Below, one piece after another: positions 423 to 49,643 of a DNA stretch of 64,000 nucleotides. The DNA is taken from sequence record OR352946.1, one strand, 5' to 3'. Origin of the DNA: Escherichia phage AV116. Under the pieces are notes generated by a model. The model was not told the origin of the DNA and searched no databases. It worked only from the letters and a program-made list of their open reading frames with translations. The number at the start of each line of letters is the position of its first letter. Position 1 is the stretch's first letter. The position numbers were made by a program, and so were the translations under genes.

Positions 423-1592
423 TCATTCCGGGTACCTCAAAGCGTCATCAGAGTTAGTTATATCAATAATAGATATAGAGTTTTCTGCTAACCCGTTTTT
501 AGATAATTGACGTTTATAATATCTTTCACAATATGTACACGTCGTCCCGCAGATTTCATTAGCACAATCGAAATCTGGATGTCTGAACCACCTTTTTTCT
601 AAAAAGCCATCTAACAAAGAGGTTTCAATATTTACTGTATGTGAAAACTCAGTTTCGTTTTCAAGAGTGAAAATGGTCTCTAAAGGCTTCCACAGTTCTA
701 ACAAATTACCTTCAAACTTTTCAGAAGCGTATGCTTCAAGAACTTTCAAAATGTAGTCTGTGCTACCTGTACGTCCTGAAACTTTGAATTGAGTGATACC
801 AATATCATTATAAAGTTTCAAATCTTGAGGACGAACAAAACGAGTTCTCAACCAGTTAAATGGGTCTGTATCACGAGCTTTAATACAGTGCTGCATAGGA
901 TATCCGTTTAAGGATTTAGCATCATCAGCGGTAACATCAGTACTATGGAAAATATAGCAAGAGTCACGATAGCTACAATGTGTTGTATACCCTTTACCAG
1001 CATTAGAACAGAACTCATTTACAAGAACTTCAAATATTATATTGTTCTTATTGCAAAACTCTGCTGCACGCTTCAGGAAAGAAACTGAACGGTTCTTATG
1101 AATTCCGCAGCAGACCTTTTTGATATTATACTGGTCATGCAAGTATTTGATTTGAGTTACAGCATCGACATGTAGAATTGTTGAAACTTCAATCTCAATG
1201 TCTTTATTGACTTCACGAACAATTTCCATAACAACAGGGTTAGCGATAGTAATACGCCATACGCCTATTGACCAAAGATACTGAACATAATCCTGAATAG
1301 CTTTCTTCTTCCACTCAACTAGTTCTCTTTTTGAACCAGGATTTATCGTGTTGAGTGTATAGTTAAAGCAAATACCTAATTCGTTACAACGTTTAACGTA
1401 GTCTTCTAACATCTTTTTGTCAACGTCAGGAAGCCTAAAATCAGGTCTGGCTGCTACAAAAGCCATTTCTCTTGTAGAGCCATATACTTCGTTTATCAAG
1501 CTATTAGGATAGGTTTTATTGAGCTCTACGATTTTATCAAGAAGAGCTAAATCAAAATTCGTTCCGATTTTAAAAGTATTCATTTTTTGCAT
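423..1592 (-). CDS. cysteine-rich hypothetical protein, candidate Fe-S/TIM-barrel enzyme or DNA sugar transferase of the hypermodification cassette
   Basis: 389-aa ORF with C-terminal CANEICGTTCTYC cluster and further conserved-looking Cys (VCCG, FCSNAG, HCSYRDSC); weak resemblance to U32-type proteins; no T4 counterpart here. Confidence 0.75.
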   Translation of the reverse strand: MQKMNTFKIGTNFDLALLDKIVELNKTYPNSLINEVYGSTREMAFVAARPDFRLPDVDKKMLEDYVKRCNELGICFNYTLNTINPGSKRELVEWKKKAIQDYVQYLWSIGVWRITIANPVVMEIVREVNKDIEIEVSTILHVDAVTQIKYLHDQYNIKKVCCGIHKNRSVSFLKRAAEFCNKNNIIFEVLVNEFCSNAGKGYTTHCSYRDSCYIFHSTDVTADDAKSLNGYPMQHCIKARDTDPFNWLRTRFVRPQDLKLYNDIGITQFKVSGRTGSTDYILKVLEAYASEKFEGNLLELWKPLETIFTLENETEFSHTVNIETSLLDGFLEKRWFRHPDFDCANEICGTTCTYCERYYKRQLSKNGLAENSISIIDITNSDDALRYPE

Positions 1593-46489: not shown

Positions 46490-47116
46490 TTATTTACGGG
46501 TTTTTGCATACTGAGCAGCGTCAGCAGCCAAACGACCTGCCTGACGAAGTTTTTCTTTAATCTCATCGTGAAGTGGTTGAGTGTACTTCAAACCTTCAAT
46601 AGTCAAATAAAGACGATAAAGGTCTGGGGTATCAAGGTTGTTGATATGTTGGCCATTACGAAGACTGTTGAATTCACGAACGAGTGAAGATGTATCGGAT
46701 TCAATATCACGAACAAGCGAAGATAGTTGTTTATATTTTTTTTCCAGGCTAGAAGTATCAAACTTAAGAGCAGGAGCTTTAGGAGTTGCTTTTACTTCCG
46801 GCTTAGGCTCAGGTTTTGCTACTGCTTTAGGGGTCGCAGGTTTAGGAGTGGTAGGAGCAGGTTTTACTTTAGGCGAACCAGATTTAGCAGAAACACCACC
46901 ACTAACAATATCTTTGAATGCTTTAGAAGCTCTGTAATATTCTTTTTGGCTGGAAGTGTCGATACCGTACATGGCTTGAACGTTTTTGAAAAACTCTGTA
47001 CTAGTTTTTGTACCAGAAATAGCATCGTAAGCAGCTTGCCACTTCTCTTTTGTCATACGTACACCGGCTTCGGTGATTACTTCCGTTTCGGCTAAAAATT
47101 CATTAAAAGTATACAT
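46490..47116 (-). CDS. internal-protein-like protein with capsid-targeting-like N-terminus and Pro/Lys/Ala-rich linker
   Basis: 208 aa; N-terminal MYTFNEFLAETE; central PKVKPAPTTPKPATPKAVAKPEPKPEVKATPKAP. Confidence 0.55.
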   Translation of the reverse strand: MYTFNEFLAETEVITEAGVRMTKEKWQAAYDAISGTKTSTEFFKNVQAMYGIDTSSQKEYYRASKAFKDIVSGGVSAKSGSPKVKPAPTTPKPATPKAVAKPEPKPEVKATPKAPALKFDTSSLEKKYKQLSSLVRDIESDTSSLVREFNSLRNGQHINNLDTPDLYRLYLTIEGLKYTQPLHDEIKEKLRQAGRLAADAAQYAKTRK

Positions 47117-47151
47117 TGATGGTCCTTAGAAAGTAGGTTTATTATTTACTA

Positions 47152-47159
47152 TATTTATA
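47152..47159 (-). promoter_or_regulatory. T4 late promoter TATAAATA
   Basis: Plus tatttata is TATAAATA on the minus strand, about 35 bp upstream of the ATG at 47116. Confidence 0.55.
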
Positions 47160-47160
47160 C

Positions 47161-47188
47161 AAAAAAGCCCCAACCTTTCGGAAGGGGC
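47161..47188 (-). terminator. rho-independent terminator (GCCCCUUCC-GAAA-GGUUGGGGC plus U6)
   Basis: Hairpin 47167..47188 followed by a six-T run on the minus strand; terminates the tRNA-region transcript. Confidence 0.6.
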
Positions 47189-47231
47189 TATATACCTTGT
47201 CGGGGTTTCCACCTACTAGATAAGTGTTTGT

Positions 47232-47305
47232 ACGAAACGCCGGGATTCGAACCCGGTTATTAAGTAGTTGACGCTACTCAATATTTTTAAAAAGGCCATA
47301 TCTCG
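47232..47305 (-). ncRNA. tRNA-like element / degenerate tRNA (canonical T-arm, aberrant D and anticodon arms)
   Basis: Minus strand CCGGG-TTCGAAT-CCCGG T-arm and pairable acceptor (CGAGATA/CGTTTCG) but no clean cloverleaf; 6-nt anticodon-like loop. Confidence 0.25.
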
Positions 47306-47497
47306 ACCGTATCCGAACGTTCCGTCAAAAACGCTACTCGGCTTACGGCAAAGATATTTCCTCGAATCGATAATTCTGTGCGCCGTTTCTGCTGTGATGT
47401 AAGGGGATATTAACAAATCGTAAAGATTTATTAAGACCAGTCCTTACTCAGGGAACATCAGTCCGACGACTTGCCGGTAGCGACCCGGCTTCTTGTT

Positions 47498-47574
<77 letters not shown>

Positions 47575-47577
47575 TAA

Positions 47578-48243
47578 TTAAAATTTCATTTTTCGACCTT
47601 TAAACCATCCTTCTGGAATTGGGTCAGTTTTCTTAATACGTTTAGAAACTTTTTCATCTAATGAATGAATCCACATCATACCAAATTGGGAATTCTTTTC
47701 GCCCTGTTGATGTTTATTTCTGGCGTGAGATTCTTTCATTTTATTAATAGTTTCAAGAGTATGGGTCTTACCCAAGAAAGATTTAGTATTTAAAAATTTC
47801 TCTCTATACTTAGGATTATCCCAAAGCTGTTTAAACCTTTCTGAACCCATTTTACGATATTTTTCTTTAAGGTCTGGGTCGTTCTCAAATCTGGTTTTAA
47901 AAGCAGCAGCCCCTTTTAAGGAAGCTTCTTTCTTTTTATCCAAATATTCTTTAGTGTTTAAATGGTCCCAACCACCTTCACCACCTAATTTCAAATTATA
48001 AACATCAGGGCGCTTTAAAAACTCTTCAGTCACAATATTCTTTTCTGACTCAAACATAGAGGTTTTATCGTCAAAGAACTCTAATATTTCTTTAGAGAAA
48101 TTTTCTATACCATACTTGTCTTGGGCTCTTTTTAATAATTTACCAGAACCCATATATCCATCATCTAAATTTTCGGTAGAATGGGCGCCTATATAGATTT
48201 TATTATTAATTTTATTTGTTATTTTATAAGTGTAATGGAACAT
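47578..48243 (-). CDS. segB: GIY-YIG homing endonuclease (SegB-like) within the tRNA cluster
   Basis: 221 aa; YKITNKINNKIYIGAHS GIY-YIG motif; lies between two tRNA genes as segB does in T4. Confidence 0.75.
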   Translation of the reverse strand: MFHYTYKITNKINNKIYIGAHSTENLDDGYMGSGKLLKRAQDKYGIENFSKEILEFFDDKTSMFESEKNIVTEEFLKRPDVYNLKLGGEGGWDHLNTKEYLDKKKEASLKGAAAFKTRFENDPDLKEKYRKMGSERFKQLWDNPKYREKFLNTKSFLGKTHTLETINKMKESHARNKHQQGEKNSQFGMMWIHSLDEKVSKRIKKTDPIPEGWFKGRKMKF

Positions 48244-48284: not shown

Positions 48285-48356
48285 TGGCCCTGGCTGGTTT
48301 CGATCCAGCTACCTATCAGTTATGAGCTGACAGCTCTCCCATTGAGCTACAGGGCC
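48285..48356 (-). tRNA. tRNA with CAU anticodon (Met, or Ile2 if lysidine-modified); CCA not encoded
   Basis: Manual cloverleaf: acceptor GGCCCTG/CAGGGCC, D-stem GCTC/GAGC, anticodon arm GTCAG-CTCATAA-CTGAT, T-arm GCTGG-ATCGAAA-CCAGC. Confidence 0.85.
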
Positions 48357-49357: not shown

Positions 49358-49621
49358 TTATTTCAAATATATTGCGTATTTTTTATAGCCACCAGGCTCG
49401 TGTCGAAGACCTTTATCATTCGCAAAACGTTGAATGTTATTGAACTGATTTTCATCAAGTTCGGATGTGTCAAATACGAAAAAGTTTCGTTTGTTACCAA
49501 GCGTGATATGCGGAGTTAAGTCAATATTATACAAATTAAGAATATCAGCAATAACCTGATTGACCGCTTTGTTAATTTTCACACCAGATGATTCTGAGAT
49601 GAATTCGTTGAAAGTTTTCAT
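49358..49621 (-). CDS. internal-protein-like protein with capsid-targeting sequence
   Basis: N-terminal MKTFNEFISES; start set at internal Met of the track ORF. Confidence 0.5.
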   Translation of the reverse strand: MKTFNEFISESSGVKINKAVNQVIADILNLYNIDLTPHITLGNKRNFFVFDTSELDENQFNNIQRFANDKGLRHEPGGYKKYAIYLK

Positions 49622-49643
49622 TTTAGGTTCCATTTGGTTGTTT

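Follow-up and report, generated by a model that had tools for sequence, protein, structure and literature searches.

The minus strand of positions 47189-47497, in the 64,000-nucleotide stretch of Escherichia phage AV116 DNA that we analysed (the window), almost certainly carries, judging from sequence alignment, the orthologue of the rnaD-rnaC block that follows the tRNA-Arg gene of phage T4. rnaC and rnaD are conserved, structured, non-coding RNAs that follow tRNA-Arg and precede the terminator at the 3' end of the tRNA operon, and as aligned the AV116 copies are orthologues, more than analogues, of the T4 species 1 (rnaC) and species 2 (rnaD) RNAs. Small stable RNAs of this name have been known since the 1970s; the locus is an already known element, and its presence in another Tequatrovirus is ordinary. 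Taken as a whole, the explanation that we favor on balance is that these orthologues would be processed by tRNA enzymes and that rnaC, with a fold containing kissing loops, would act in trans as a tRNA mimic. Several results support the identity of the locus.

First, both RNAs aligned base for base with the annotated T4 and RB5 features. rnaC was identical to its T4 counterpart at 137 of 140 aligned positions (97.9%) and to that of RB5 at 137 of 140 also, and identity for rnaD was 85.1% to T4 (103 of 121 aligned positions) and 91.7% to RB5. By contrast, tRNA-Arg, one base before the start of rnaD, is just 44.7% identical to the tRNA-Arg of T4. The T4 reference features were rnaC 70908-71046 and rnaD 71053-71171 in NC_000866, and the rnaC and rnaD ends listed for the window (Table 1) were transferred from the T4 and RB5 annotation. 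Going by the annotated ends of T4 rnaC and rnaD, processing removes the T4 equivalent of the spacer between them. Second, the window and T4 share the gene order tRNA-Arg, rnaD, 6-nt spacer, rnaC, trailer and terminator, with a segB-type GIY-YIG homing endonuclease gene just upstream of tRNA-Arg in both. The differences are that rnaC departs from T4 at three places, one of them an extra U in the junction U-run of the window; that the rnaD differences fall mostly in the apical hairpin; that the upstream tRNA array, unlike that of T4, is reduced to tRNA-Met and tRNA-Arg, the latter a different allele; and that the gene downstream of the block is internal-head-protein-like, whereas in T4 it is e.8. 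Third, 807 phage records matched the block by BLAST, 679 of them over at least 80% of its length; nhmmer and a covariance model grouped the rnaC of the window with annotated copies, and model R1 scored 149 bits at rnaC and found no second copy in the 64-kb window. Finally, minimum free energies were -52.0 kcal/mol for rnaC (z = -4.7; 0/200 shuffles as good) and -38.6 kcal/mol for rnaD (z = -3.5; 1/200 as good). An earlier note, made from the letters of this DNA, had proposed about 300 nt of non-coding sequence in the tRNA cluster with candidate stable RNAs, which these results bear out as rnaD and rnaC, and it had likened them to the two stable RNAs in the tRNA cluster of T4, a likeness stronger than it claimed, given the base-level alignment and the same position.

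Table 1. Coordinates of features in and around the rnaD-rnaC block of the AV116 window.
Feature	Position	Strand	Description
tRNA-Arg (anticodon UCU)	47574..47498	-	ARAGORN (tct); Rfam tRNA, 71.2 bits; last tRNA of the operon
rnaD (species 2 RNA) orthologue	47496..47377	-	120 nt; aligned to T4 and RB5 rnaD features
rnaD 5' hairpin, GCCGG-GUCGCUA-CCGGC	47489..47473	-	
rnaD/rnaC spacer, GAAUUA	47376..47371	-	6 nt; coordinates mapped from T4 and RB5 annotation
rnaC (species 1 RNA) orthologue	47370..47231	-	140 nt; tRNA-shaped, built on a four-way junction
rnaC acceptor-like stem, CGAUUCG / CGUUUCG	47369..47363 with 47239..47233	-	5 Watson-Crick pairs around two U.U mismatches
D-like stem framing the long arm, AGG / CCU	47362..47360 with 47295..47293	-	3 bp
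rnaC long arm	47357..47298	-	60-nt imperfect hairpin inserted at the D-loop position
Hexaloop A, UUGACG	47328..47323	-	Apex of the rnaC long arm
rnaC B arm	47283..47258	-	10-bp hairpin at the anticodon-arm position; both sides vary in each of the 10 stem pairs
Hexaloop B, CGUCAA	47273..47268	-	Loop of the rnaC B arm
rnaC T arm, CCGGG-UUCGAAU-CCCGG	47256..47240	-	Canonical T loop; closing pair equivalent to G53-C61
rnaC 3' tail, UA	47232..47231	-	
3' trailer	47230..47190	-	About 42 nt, between rnaC and terminator; partly conserved
Trailer hairpin, CUUAU-CUA-GUAGG	47224..47212	-	
Intrinsic terminator, AGCCCC-UU-CC-GAAA-GG-UU-GGGGCU + U6	47189..47161	-	Hairpin 47189..47166; homologous to the T4 terminator
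66-aa ORF, TTG start	47416..47216	-	Spans rnaC, starts inside rnaD; spurious

The fold of rnaC and the pairing of its loops

The secondary structure of rnaC is very probably an enlarged cloverleaf on a four-way junction. Its parts are a 7-bp acceptor-like stem made from the ends of the RNA itself, a 5-bp T arm on which that stem stacks in the comparative fold, a 10-bp hairpin at the anticodon position, and a 60-nt hairpin that replaces the D loop. The fold was examined on 28 distinct homologues, drawn from several Tevenvirinae genera and aligned with MAFFT without fitting to any structure. Across these homologues, which are related by descent and hence do not yield independent counts, 90.3% of cells paired as against 38.6-47.7% when the 3' partners were slid by 1-3 columns, and both sides had changed in 33 of 54 pairs as against 8-14 in the slid controls and 22.2 +/- 2.0 in shuffles (0/500 shuffles reached 33). 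The covariation score was 0.415 (0.06-0.15 in slid controls), and the picture was unchanged with 24 sequences.

Individual elements changed in ways that kept them paired. The third pair of the acceptor-like stem is G-C in 19 and A-U in 9 of the 28 homologues and unpaired in none, and in Yersinia phage MHG19 the two U.U positions have become C-G and U.G, with a bulged A. The T stem is paired in 100% of the homologues, its middle pair being UA in 14, GC in 11, AU in 2 and UG in 1, and the T arm leads straight into the 3' acceptor strand. In the long arm, which occurs as two sequence types of equal length, both sides changed in 18 of 23 pairs; it also has internal loops and retains a bulge of 3-4 nt that lies a few base pairs below loop A. 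Segment lengths are held within 1-2 nt across genera, even where the sequence of an arm has been replaced.

Most of the motifs picked out by hand in the earlier note find a place in this fold. The T-arm sequence GGTTCGAATCC lies exactly at 47253..47243 (minus strand) inside a perfect T arm; the "aberrant" D/anticodon region is the place where a 60-nt hairpin stands for the D loop and where the anticodon-position loop has 6 nt, complementary to loop A; and the small GC hairpins are the rnaD 5' hairpin and the rnaC T arm. The proposed pairable acceptor held in part: a conserved stem does exist, between the ends of rnaC, but an internal pairing of CGGAACG with CGUUUCG, if that was the one meant, gained no comparative support, with 81.6% paired against 82.8% in shuffles and one position unpaired in 16 of 28 sequences. 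The duplicated motif GAGTAGCGT is indeed present twice, at 47339..47331 and 47279..47271 (minus strand), the only two matches in the 64-kb window, where 0.18 were expected and 0/100 shuffles reached two. As a switch or binding site the duplicated GAGUAGCGU, whose CGU is the start of loop B, was discarded: the duplicate is not conserved, the second copy being altered in one relative (L025) and the first in another (EnC15). A K-turn in the long arm was discarded as well, since the nucleotides after its 3-nt bulge are AG rather than GA.

Hexaloops A and B probably pair with each other, to judge from their sequences. They are complementary at 6/6 positions in 28/28 homologues, a potential 6-bp helix, and occur as three variants (UUGACG/CGUCAA, UUGGCG/CGCCAA and UUAGCG/CGCUAA) in separate lineages, namely T4-type phages, the Marfavirus group and Yersinia phage MHG19; the covariation thus comes from two lineages beyond the majority type and from two of the six pairs, the other four being invariant. 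The stems flanking the two loops are each independently supported by covariation. Complementarity in every sequence, together with covariation in three variants, suggests that the loops kiss, and rnaC would share with the kissing-loop class two loops whose Watson-Crick complementarity appears to have been kept through compensatory changes. An extended A:B duplex, predicted at 19 bp in EnC15, was rejected; it is unconserved in Melville and PEi20, and only the six loop bases are conserved.

We lean slightly toward pairing of the two loops within one molecule. The less probable but still realistic alternative is that they pair between molecules, so that rnaC would form dimers or rings joined hand in hand like phi29 pRNA, with the oligomer as the active form. 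The A:B covariation is blind to this choice, and the conserved arm lengths are compatible with either geometry. Hairpins of 60 and 26 nt leaving one junction would be awkward to close, as kissing in cis requires a sharp bend; yet the bulge and internal loops of the long arm could supply such bends, and the T4 literature searched contains no report of oligomeric species 1 RNA. There is a precedent for pairing in trans: the covarying loop-loop complementarity of phi29 pRNA was once drawn as an intramolecular pseudoknot and turned out to be intermolecular. Like rnaC, and at a similar size, pRNA is a stable RNA encoded by a phage and has two covarying complementary loops; unlike rnaC, to which it shows no homology, it has no tRNA-like half, and its loops pair over 4 bp between molecules to form a ring on the portal. 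T4 DNA packaging is not known to require an RNA. Pairing between molecules would alter the architecture of rnaC, not the identity of the element.

Operon context, distribution and processing

In T4, the tRNA operon transcript is a precursor of eight tRNAs plus the species I and II RNAs and ends after species I (PMC2330249). RNAC and RNAD of T4 are described as late RNAs "of yet unknown functions", with Northern validation reported and an RNAC riboprobe described (PMC9697503). This evidence of expression comes from T4. The AV116 terminator hairpin has a predicted stability of -16.0 kcal/mol (z = -3.3; 0/200 shuffles as good) and draws partial matches to terminator-type Rfam families. The trailer before it, about 9 nt shorter than in T4 and RB5, is partly conserved even in JS98, which has no rnaC. 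The minimum-free-energy fold of the trailer is weak (z = -2.0); by eye in the alignment, its hairpin keeps the stem of the T4 version, CUUGC...GCAGG, through changes of G-C to A-U and of C-G to U.G.

We propose that rnaD is a separate, rod-like RNA module. Its closing stem, GUCGUCG / CGGCG(C)AC, is invariant and encloses a long irregular hairpin whose apex varies between relatives; RNAalifold on 13 distinct homologues gave 34 pairs, 10 of them changed on both sides, and the closing pair of the 5' hairpin is AU in 7, GC in 5 and GU in 1 of the 13. Two further candidates in rnaD were rejected: a hammerhead (CUGAUG...GAAAC), in which A9 is absent, the flanking strands pair with each other and no Rfam match was found, and a pairing of the rnaD loop GUCGCUAC with the rnaC motif GUAGCG, a 6-mer match at chance expectation. 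GUAGCG is invariant also in phages without rnaD.

rnaC and rnaD are separate modules. Five or more other Tevenvirinae genera have an rnaC that is unaccompanied by rnaD and does not lie at the operon 3' end, and JS98 keeps rnaD and lacks rnaC. Where rnaC lies within arrays of other genera it takes the slot of a tRNA, with tRNA-like spacers of 4-12 nt, as in the order tRNA-Trp / rnaC / tRNA-Gly of Karamvirus and Gelderlandvirus and tRNA-Phe / rnaC / tRNA-Trp of EcS1. A strict rnaC pattern had no match among 185,579 bacterial and archaeal species, each represented by one genome, which makes the element phage-only at the stringency tested. A metagenome scan with the pattern TCGAGGA...GGTTCRANTCCNNGCG gave at least 120 matches; among the matches listed, nearly all were chance tRNAs and a single one was a real rnaC locus (L093, RB5-like). 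Covariance model R1, run over about 447 kb of loci, found no more distant rnaC homologue and weak tRNA matches only; alignment A6 from this search includes tRNAs and was left out of the analysis.

Going by the T4 annotation, the literature and general knowledge, rnaC and rnaD would be transcribed together with the tRNAs and excised by the tRNA-maturation enzymes of the host. In rnaC, RNase P may cleave on the 5' side of the 12-bp minihelix that the acceptor and T stems form, and the 3' sides of both RNAs may be trimmed by endonucleases and exonucleases. The annotated 5' end of rnaC is one base upstream of the RNase P cut expected for a 7-bp acceptor stem. Burial of their ends and loops in helices may then allow the two RNAs to accumulate.

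It is unlikely, in our judgment, that rnaC and rnaD are solely cis-acting processing or stability modules of the tRNA operon, with the stable RNAs as leftovers. On that view they would be structured 3' blocks that direct RNases to their cut sites and protect the tRNAs upstream against 3' exonucleases, and in Tequatrovirus the pair does stand at the operon 3' end, directly before the terminator; both RNAs are released from the tRNA precursor itself (PMC2330249), and no trans phenotype appears in the literature searched. In Karamvirus, Gelderlandvirus, Kagamiyamavirus and others, however, rnaC sits in mid-array with tRNAs downstream. A mere roadblock, moreover, would need neither invariant complementary hexaloops, a canonical T loop and fixed arm lengths nor 98% identity of rnaC beside a tRNA-Arg replaced by a 45%-identical version. 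A role in trans would also explain more easily a convergent, adaptive SNP in rnaD: when the T4-like phage BW-1 was evolved on the semi-permissive strain ECOR34, three replicate lines had one shared rnaD SNP (PMC12685909), which was possibly already in the starting stock.

Likeness to tRNAs and to other RNAs

rnaC has a tRNA-like half, made up of the acceptor-like stem and the T arm. It shares with tRNAs, class II tRNA-Ser and tRNA-Sec-like ones in particular, a four-way junction, an acceptor/T stack, a UUCGAAU loop with a G-C closing pair, a GG in the D-region loop at the G18-G19 position and a tRNA slot in arrays. Its 7-bp acceptor, with two U.U mismatches, is continuous with a 5-bp T stem capped by a UUCRANY-type loop. 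The other two arms differ from those of a tRNA, in which the D loop has 7-11 nt and the anticodon loop 7 unpaired nt: in rnaC a 60-nt hairpin replaces the D loop, and the loop at the anticodon position has 6 nt, which probably pair with loop A. The 3' end encoded in the AV116 genome reads ...CGUUUCG-U-ACA, without the CCA (T4-type), whereas Marfavirus-type homologues have U-CCA. The best non-self matches of the rnaC covariance model were class II tRNA-Ser genes, end to end, at 19-23 bits, and these weak matches suggest descent of rnaC from a tRNA.

No ordinary tRNA had been missed by hand folding, a case raised in the earlier note: ARAGORN found none in rnaC or rnaD, its calls being tRNA-Arg(tct) at 47574..47498 and tRNA-Met at 48356..48285, and at the gathering score Rfam returned the same two tRNAs only. 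Neither rnaC nor rnaD as such matched an Rfam family, whether the cutoff was the gathering score or E = 10. When 47100-47600 was scanned permissively, Rfam returned a tRNA-Sec match of 16.1 bits (E = 2.1), against a gathering score of 47, at 47325..47232; the other matches were to the terminator hairpin.

A decaying tRNA, the other reading offered at first sight, is very improbable and is rejected on the comparative data. A canonical T arm, acceptor-like pairing and a place in a tRNA cluster all invite it, as do the 16-bit tRNA-Sec match, the weak tRNA-Ser matches of the rnaC model and a relative (L013) in which ARAGORN calls the 3' 94 nt "tRNA-Stop(tta)"; that call uses the internal acceptor pairing, which does not covary. 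The parts of rnaC least like a tRNA, the long arm and the hexaloops, are conserved across 28 lineages with compensatory changes and fixed lengths, the homologues span several genera, which excludes recent copying of one another, and rnaC is 98% identical to T4 beside diverged flanks, where a pseudogene would drift. Compensatory change in 33 of 54 pairs, non-tRNA-like parts included, and lengths held within 1-2 nt indicate strong purifying selection instead.

Other RNAs whose acceptor/T "top half" is offered to proteins that recognise tRNAs (the tRNA-like domain of tmRNA, YrlA and the tRNA-like structures of plant viruses) share this concept with rnaC and differ from it in structure. rnaC has neither the tag ORF nor the pseudoknot ring of tmRNA, and ARAGORN found no tmRNA at the locus, where a 10-bit T-loop fragment matches the permuted tmRNA model in the permissive Rfam scan. 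rnaC lacks the Ro-binding helix of YrlA, and the permissive Rfam scan of 47100-47600 (E up to 10) returned no family of the Y-RNA type. Unlike the plant-virus structures, rnaC is not at the 3' terminus of a genome or mRNA. The C4 RNA of P1/P7 and the CI RNA of P4 are also small phage RNAs that RNase P frees from a tRNA-like precursor; they are antisense repressors with known targets, whereas the loops of rnaC are proposed, from their sequences, to be occupied by each other.

There is next to no chance that the locus encodes a small protein. The 66-aa ORF does exist in AV116, many matching phage records annotate a "hypothetical protein" here, and two PHROG families match it. Against a protein, the ORF begins with a TTG within rnaD, meets in-frame stops in 11 of the 12 relatives compared and carries substitutions that are compensatory for RNA pairing. 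In those 11 relatives a T-run of 3 to 5 bases shifts the frame, which stops right after "...DMAF", some 36 codons in, or before that point, and the earlier note was justified in finding this ORF unconvincing. Its two halves match different PHROG families that have no assigned function, phrog_24262 and phrog_28391, split at the point of the frameshift, which suggests that both families were built from mis-called ORFs. The locus is prone to misannotation: small hypothetical proteins are called across rnaD/rnaC in many phage records, these two PHROG families appear to derive from false ORFs, and a stretch of rnaC can be taken by ARAGORN for a suppressor tRNA.

Possible roles of rnaC and rnaD

The literature searched, with primary papers of the 1970s-80s outside its scope, describes no function or structure for rnaC or rnaD, nor the fold found here for rnaC. 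T4 remains viable on laboratory hosts when the tRNA region is deleted, which would make any function of the two RNAs conditional. The modular occurrence of rnaC and rnaD and the convergent rnaD SNP likewise point to a conditional, host-dependent role, a pattern now linked to phage tRNAs and to counter-defence.

Speculatively, rnaC could mimic a tRNA in trans: a tRNA-binding protein of host or phage would bind its top half, and the loop-loop helix would lock its "anticodon" end, which would thus be neither decoded nor cut. Such an RNA could serve as a nuclease-resistant decoy or titrating ligand for a tRNA-directed enzyme or a defence factor. We put forward a mimic or decoy function only tentatively; still more doubtful is the specific version in which rnaC, with its anticodon end closed and as a ring or pRNA-like oligomer, would resist nucleases and serve as a decoy for a tRNA-directed enzyme or an anti-phage system of the host.

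The comparative fold makes the question of function testable, as it specifies concrete mutants in the top half and in the kissing loops of rnaC. If the decoy reading is true, rnaC and rnaD would be conditional host-range determinants of T4-like phages, which would fit the rnaD SNP selected on ECOR34 and would provide a first function for RNAs that have been without one since the 1970s.

Identity of the locus and its neighbors

By alignment, the interval between the terminator and tRNA-Arg encodes orthologs of two RNAs already known from T4, rnaD and rnaC, on the same minus strand as the surrounding genes. A BLAST search of 47150-47500 against 50,697 phage records matched 807, with 679 covering at least 80% of the query. 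Nearly all were T4-like phages of Escherichia, Shigella, Yersinia, and Salmonella, which places the window in Tequatrovirus. The annotation under the match is tRNA-Arg, rnaD ('species II RNA'), and rnaC in RB5, and tRNA-Arg, rnaD ('species 2 RNA', 71053-71171), and rnaC ('species 1 RNA', 70908-71046) in T4 (NC_000866); RNA ends in the window were transferred from these annotations by three-way alignment. The earlier note had named stable RNAs like those of the T4 tRNA cluster, or a decaying tRNA, as plausible contents of 47189-47497. The limits of this interval coincide with those of rnaD, rnaC, and the trailer together, and both the observation and its interpretation as stable RNAs were correct. 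The T-arm motif it described has an exact copy at 47253..47243, and its duplicated motif, GAGTAGCGT, lies at 47339..47331 and 47279..47271 (two matches versus 0.18 expected in the window). ARAGORN and Rfam scans call no ordinary tRNA inside the interval, and neither RNA matched Rfam 15. Folding energies against shuffled controls gave z = -4.7 for rnaC and z = -3.5 for rnaD.

Features of the rnaD/rnaC locus and flanking genes (window positions)
Feature	Position	Strand	Remarks
ORF	49358-49633	-	start like T4 internal-protein capsid-targeting signal (...MKTFNEFISE...); phrog_7673
tRNA-Met	48356..48285	-	ARAGORN + Rfam
GIY-YIG homing-endonuclease ORF, 221 aa	48243..47578	-	between tRNA-Met and tRNA-Arg
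tRNA-Arg(UCU)	47574..47498	-	ARAGORN + Rfam
rnaD, 120 nt	47496..47377	-	three-way alignment with T4, RB5
Spacer, 6 nt	between rnaD and rnaC	-	three-way alignment
rnaC, 140 nt	47370..47231	-	three-way alignment with T4, RB5
rnaC acceptor-like stem, 7 bp	CGAUUCG 47369..47363 with CGUUUCG 47239..47233	-	joins the two RNA ends; two U.U mismatches
rnaC D-like stem, 3 bp	AGG/CCU	-	encloses long arm
rnaC long arm, 60-nt imperfect hairpin	47357..47298	-	apical hexaloop A, UUGACG
rnaC B arm, 10-bp hairpin	47283..47258	-	hexaloop B, CGUCAA; anticodon-arm position
rnaC T arm, canonical, CCGGG-UUCGAAU-CCCGG	47256..47240	-	continuous with 3' acceptor strand
66-aa ORF, spurious	47216-47416	-	overlies rnaC
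Trailer, 42 nt	47190-47230	-	3' of rnaC; three-way alignment
Intrinsic terminator	47189..47161	-	-16.0 kcal/mol, z = -3.3
ORF	46490-47116	-	start like T4 internal-protein capsid-targeting signal (MYTFNEFLAE...)

The 221-aa ORF (Pfam GIY-YIG, 25.7 bits; phrog_314 'homing endonuclease', E = 2e-49) occupies the place held in T4 by segB, just upstream of the matched stretch, and the window has two tRNAs versus eight in T4 and ten in RB5. Compared with T4, rnaC is 97.9% identical, rnaD 85.1%, the trailer 58%, and the adjacent tRNA-Arg only 44.7% (75% to RB5). This sharp mosaic boundary, across about 130 nt between rnaC and tRNA-Arg, is consistent with exchange driven by a homing endonuclease in the tRNA region.

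The trailer (...ACACUU..GGUGGAACCCCGACAAGG...) is partly conserved, is kept in phage JS98 (locus L003) despite the absence of rnaC, and contains a small hairpin (47224..47212) with compensatory changes in the window. The T4 trailer is about 9 nt longer and has a copy of the motif CCCCGAC, with a second copy in the T4 terminator stem. At 47152-47159 (minus strand), just past the operon terminator, a T4 late-promoter-like TATAAATA precedes the 46490-47116 ORF, whose internal-protein-like start indicates that the gene downstream of rnaC differs from e.8 of T4. The 49358-49633 ORF matches its PHROG, 'internal head protein', with E = 6e-49.

Fold of rnaC and probable pairing of its loops

Our model, built from a single-sequence MFE fold and inspection of divergent homologs, predicts with high confidence that rnaC is a four-way junction, with an unpaired GG on the 3' side of the long arm and an A/U-rich linker between the long-arm region and the B arm. 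The covariation check across relatives suggested in the earlier note backs this fold. First, in a plain MAFFT alignment of 28 distinct homologs, fitted to no structure, standard pairs occupied 90.3% of cells, compared to 38.6-47.7% when 3' partners were slid by 1-3 columns. Second, 33 of 54 pairs changed on both sides, versus 8-14 in the slid controls and 22.2 +/- 2.0 in shuffles (0/500 as high), and the covariation score was 0.415 versus 0.06-0.15 when slid. Third, both-side changes affected all B-stem pairs and 18 of 23 long-arm pairs, and among the 28 homologs the middle T-stem pair (UA:14, GC:11, AU:2, UG:1) and third acceptor pair (GC:19, AU:9) varied in concert. A 24-sequence alignment gave the same picture. 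An acceptor formed instead by an internal CGGAACG and the 3' end was rejected, being 81.6% paired compared to 82.8% in shuffles, with 16 of 28 sequences unpaired at one position.

Loops A and B, the hexaloops of the long arm and B arm, were perfect complements in 28/28 sequences. Most carry UUGACG/CGUCAA, whereas the Marfavirus group (L040, L042, Klebsiella EI) has UUGGCG/CGCCAA and Yersinia phage MHG19 has UUAGCG/CGCUAA, making three forms. These loops probably pair as a kissing helix rather than in some other fold, because both flanking stems are independently supported. A longer duplex (19 bp in the EnC15 MFE fold) was discarded, as its extension is not conserved and the six loop bases alone are kept. 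The spacing of the elements hardly varies (29-30, 27-29, 17-19, and 11 nt) even though the long arm exists as two unrelated sequence types, which argues for a geometric constraint. The helix may form within one molecule or, as in phi29 pRNA, between molecules; sequence alone does not separate the two arrangements, and we regard the intramolecular form as somewhat more likely.

In Kanagawavirus-type rnaC (L005, L007, L015, L016), the T loop UUCGAAU (47251-47245) is replaced by UGCAUGC and the unpaired GG beside the D-like stem (47297-47296) by CG, possibly a coupled change in a D-loop/T-loop tertiary contact, seen in this lineage alone. In Klebsiella Marfavirus-type rnaC (L040, L042, L180), the 3' end reads ...CGUUCCG-U-CCA-A, a discriminator base plus CCA (window 47232-47228), whereas T4-type RNAs, including the window's, have U-ACA-A. 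Some rnaC RNAs might carry a tRNA-like CCA end.

Separate modules and annotation traps

rnaD is also a structured RNA. Its 5' hairpin, RCCGG-GUCGCUA-CCGGY, is invariant in 13 distinct homologs apart from a covarying closing pair (AU:7, GC:5, GU:1); its closing stem, GUCGUCG / CGGCG(C)AC, is invariant and ends one base from the 3' end; and a long irregular hairpin has an apex in three unrelated versions. No tRNA-like features were seen in these homologs. Around the annotated 3' end, T4 has CACC then A, and the window has CACA then G. In two T4-like IMG/VR contigs (L008, about 1070-1436, and L009), a ~360-nt small ORF separates tRNA-Arg from rnaD. Thus, rnaD does not always adjoin a tRNA, and its 5' end in these contigs would be made otherwise than by 3' processing of tRNA-Arg.

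Without rnaD, rnaC is embedded in the tRNA arrays of further Tevenvirinae genera, among them Kagamiyamavirus (EcS1), Kanagawavirus (IME523, Kosakonia 305), Karamvirus (EnC15, KaAlpha, fGh-Ecl01, UFV01), Moonvirus (KM16, NM4.3), and Gelderlandvirus (Melville, Proteus ABTNLPp2). Copies are likewise present in Marfavirus (Klebsiella EI), Edwardsiella PEi20, Citrobacter Ursula, and Yersinia MHG19. In these genomes rnaC takes the position of a tRNA, and the 4-12 nt that separate it from its neighbors are typical of tRNA spacers, as in tRNA-Trp / rnaC / tRNA-Gly. Because JS98 (Dhakavirus) conversely has rnaD without rnaC, the two RNAs are independent modules. A scan of 185,579 bacterial and archaeal species, one genome apiece, found no match to a specific rnaC pattern.

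The 66-aa ORF is present but not coding, in keeping with the earlier note's doubt about it: translated in 12 distinct relatives, the frame was broken in 11 by stops at the latest just past '...DMAF', because a T-run varies from 3 to 5 bases and so shifts the frame. Its matches to phrog_24262 and phrog_28391 (unknown function; residues 1-42 and 45-65) divide exactly at this T-run, and these families are most simply explained as sets of mis-called ORFs over rnaC. Many phage genome records carry 'hypothetical protein' features over the locus. In L013, a T4-like IMG/VR contig with a T-run one base shorter, ARAGORN calls a 'tRNA-Stop(tta)' (980-1073, minus strand) that is the 3' 94 nt of rnaC and uses the rejected CGGAACG pairing; this call is absent from the window and other relatives. 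Reports of a suppressor tRNA in T4-like genomes could therefore reflect rnaC.

Proposed processing and function

Our literature search found no function or tested structure for rnaC or rnaD. A 2022 time-resolved omics study places RNAC and RNAD in the late class, 'of yet unknown functions', and reports validation by a Northern assay, for which it describes an RNAC riboprobe (PMC9697503). When T4-like phage BW-1 was evolved on the semi-permissive host ECOR34 in a 2025 study, the one SNP common to 3/3 replicate lines was in rnaD (PMC12685909).

Our comparisons show the identity, non-coding nature, conserved fold, tRNA-slot location, and module independence of the RNAs and support the loop-loop pairing; the processing steps draw on T4 annotation and general knowledge of tRNA maturation. 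rnaD and rnaC would be transcribed together with the tRNAs, RNase P would release rnaC at the 5' side of its 12-bp acceptor/T minihelix, endonucleases and exonucleases would trim the remaining ends, and buried ends and loops would confer stability.

We tentatively suggest that rnaC might be a trans-acting tRNA mimic. Its top half would be presented to a tRNA-recognizing protein while its 'anticodon' end was locked and thus neither usable nor cuttable, so that rnaC would serve as a decoy or titrating ligand. The best non-self matches of an rnaC covariance model, end-to-end on class II tRNA-Ser genes at 19-23 bits, support a tRNA-like reading. Indirect arguments for this role are that selection greatly exceeds what a by-product of processing would require, that rnaC is also found away from operon ends, that the element is restricted to phages, and that the rnaD SNP is host-specific and adaptive. 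Against this role, T4 strains with the tRNA region deleted grow on laboratory hosts. For the T4-like phages, these results add a fold tested on homologs, in which a kissing helix covaries, together with evidence for rnaC and rnaD as separable modules and warnings for annotation.
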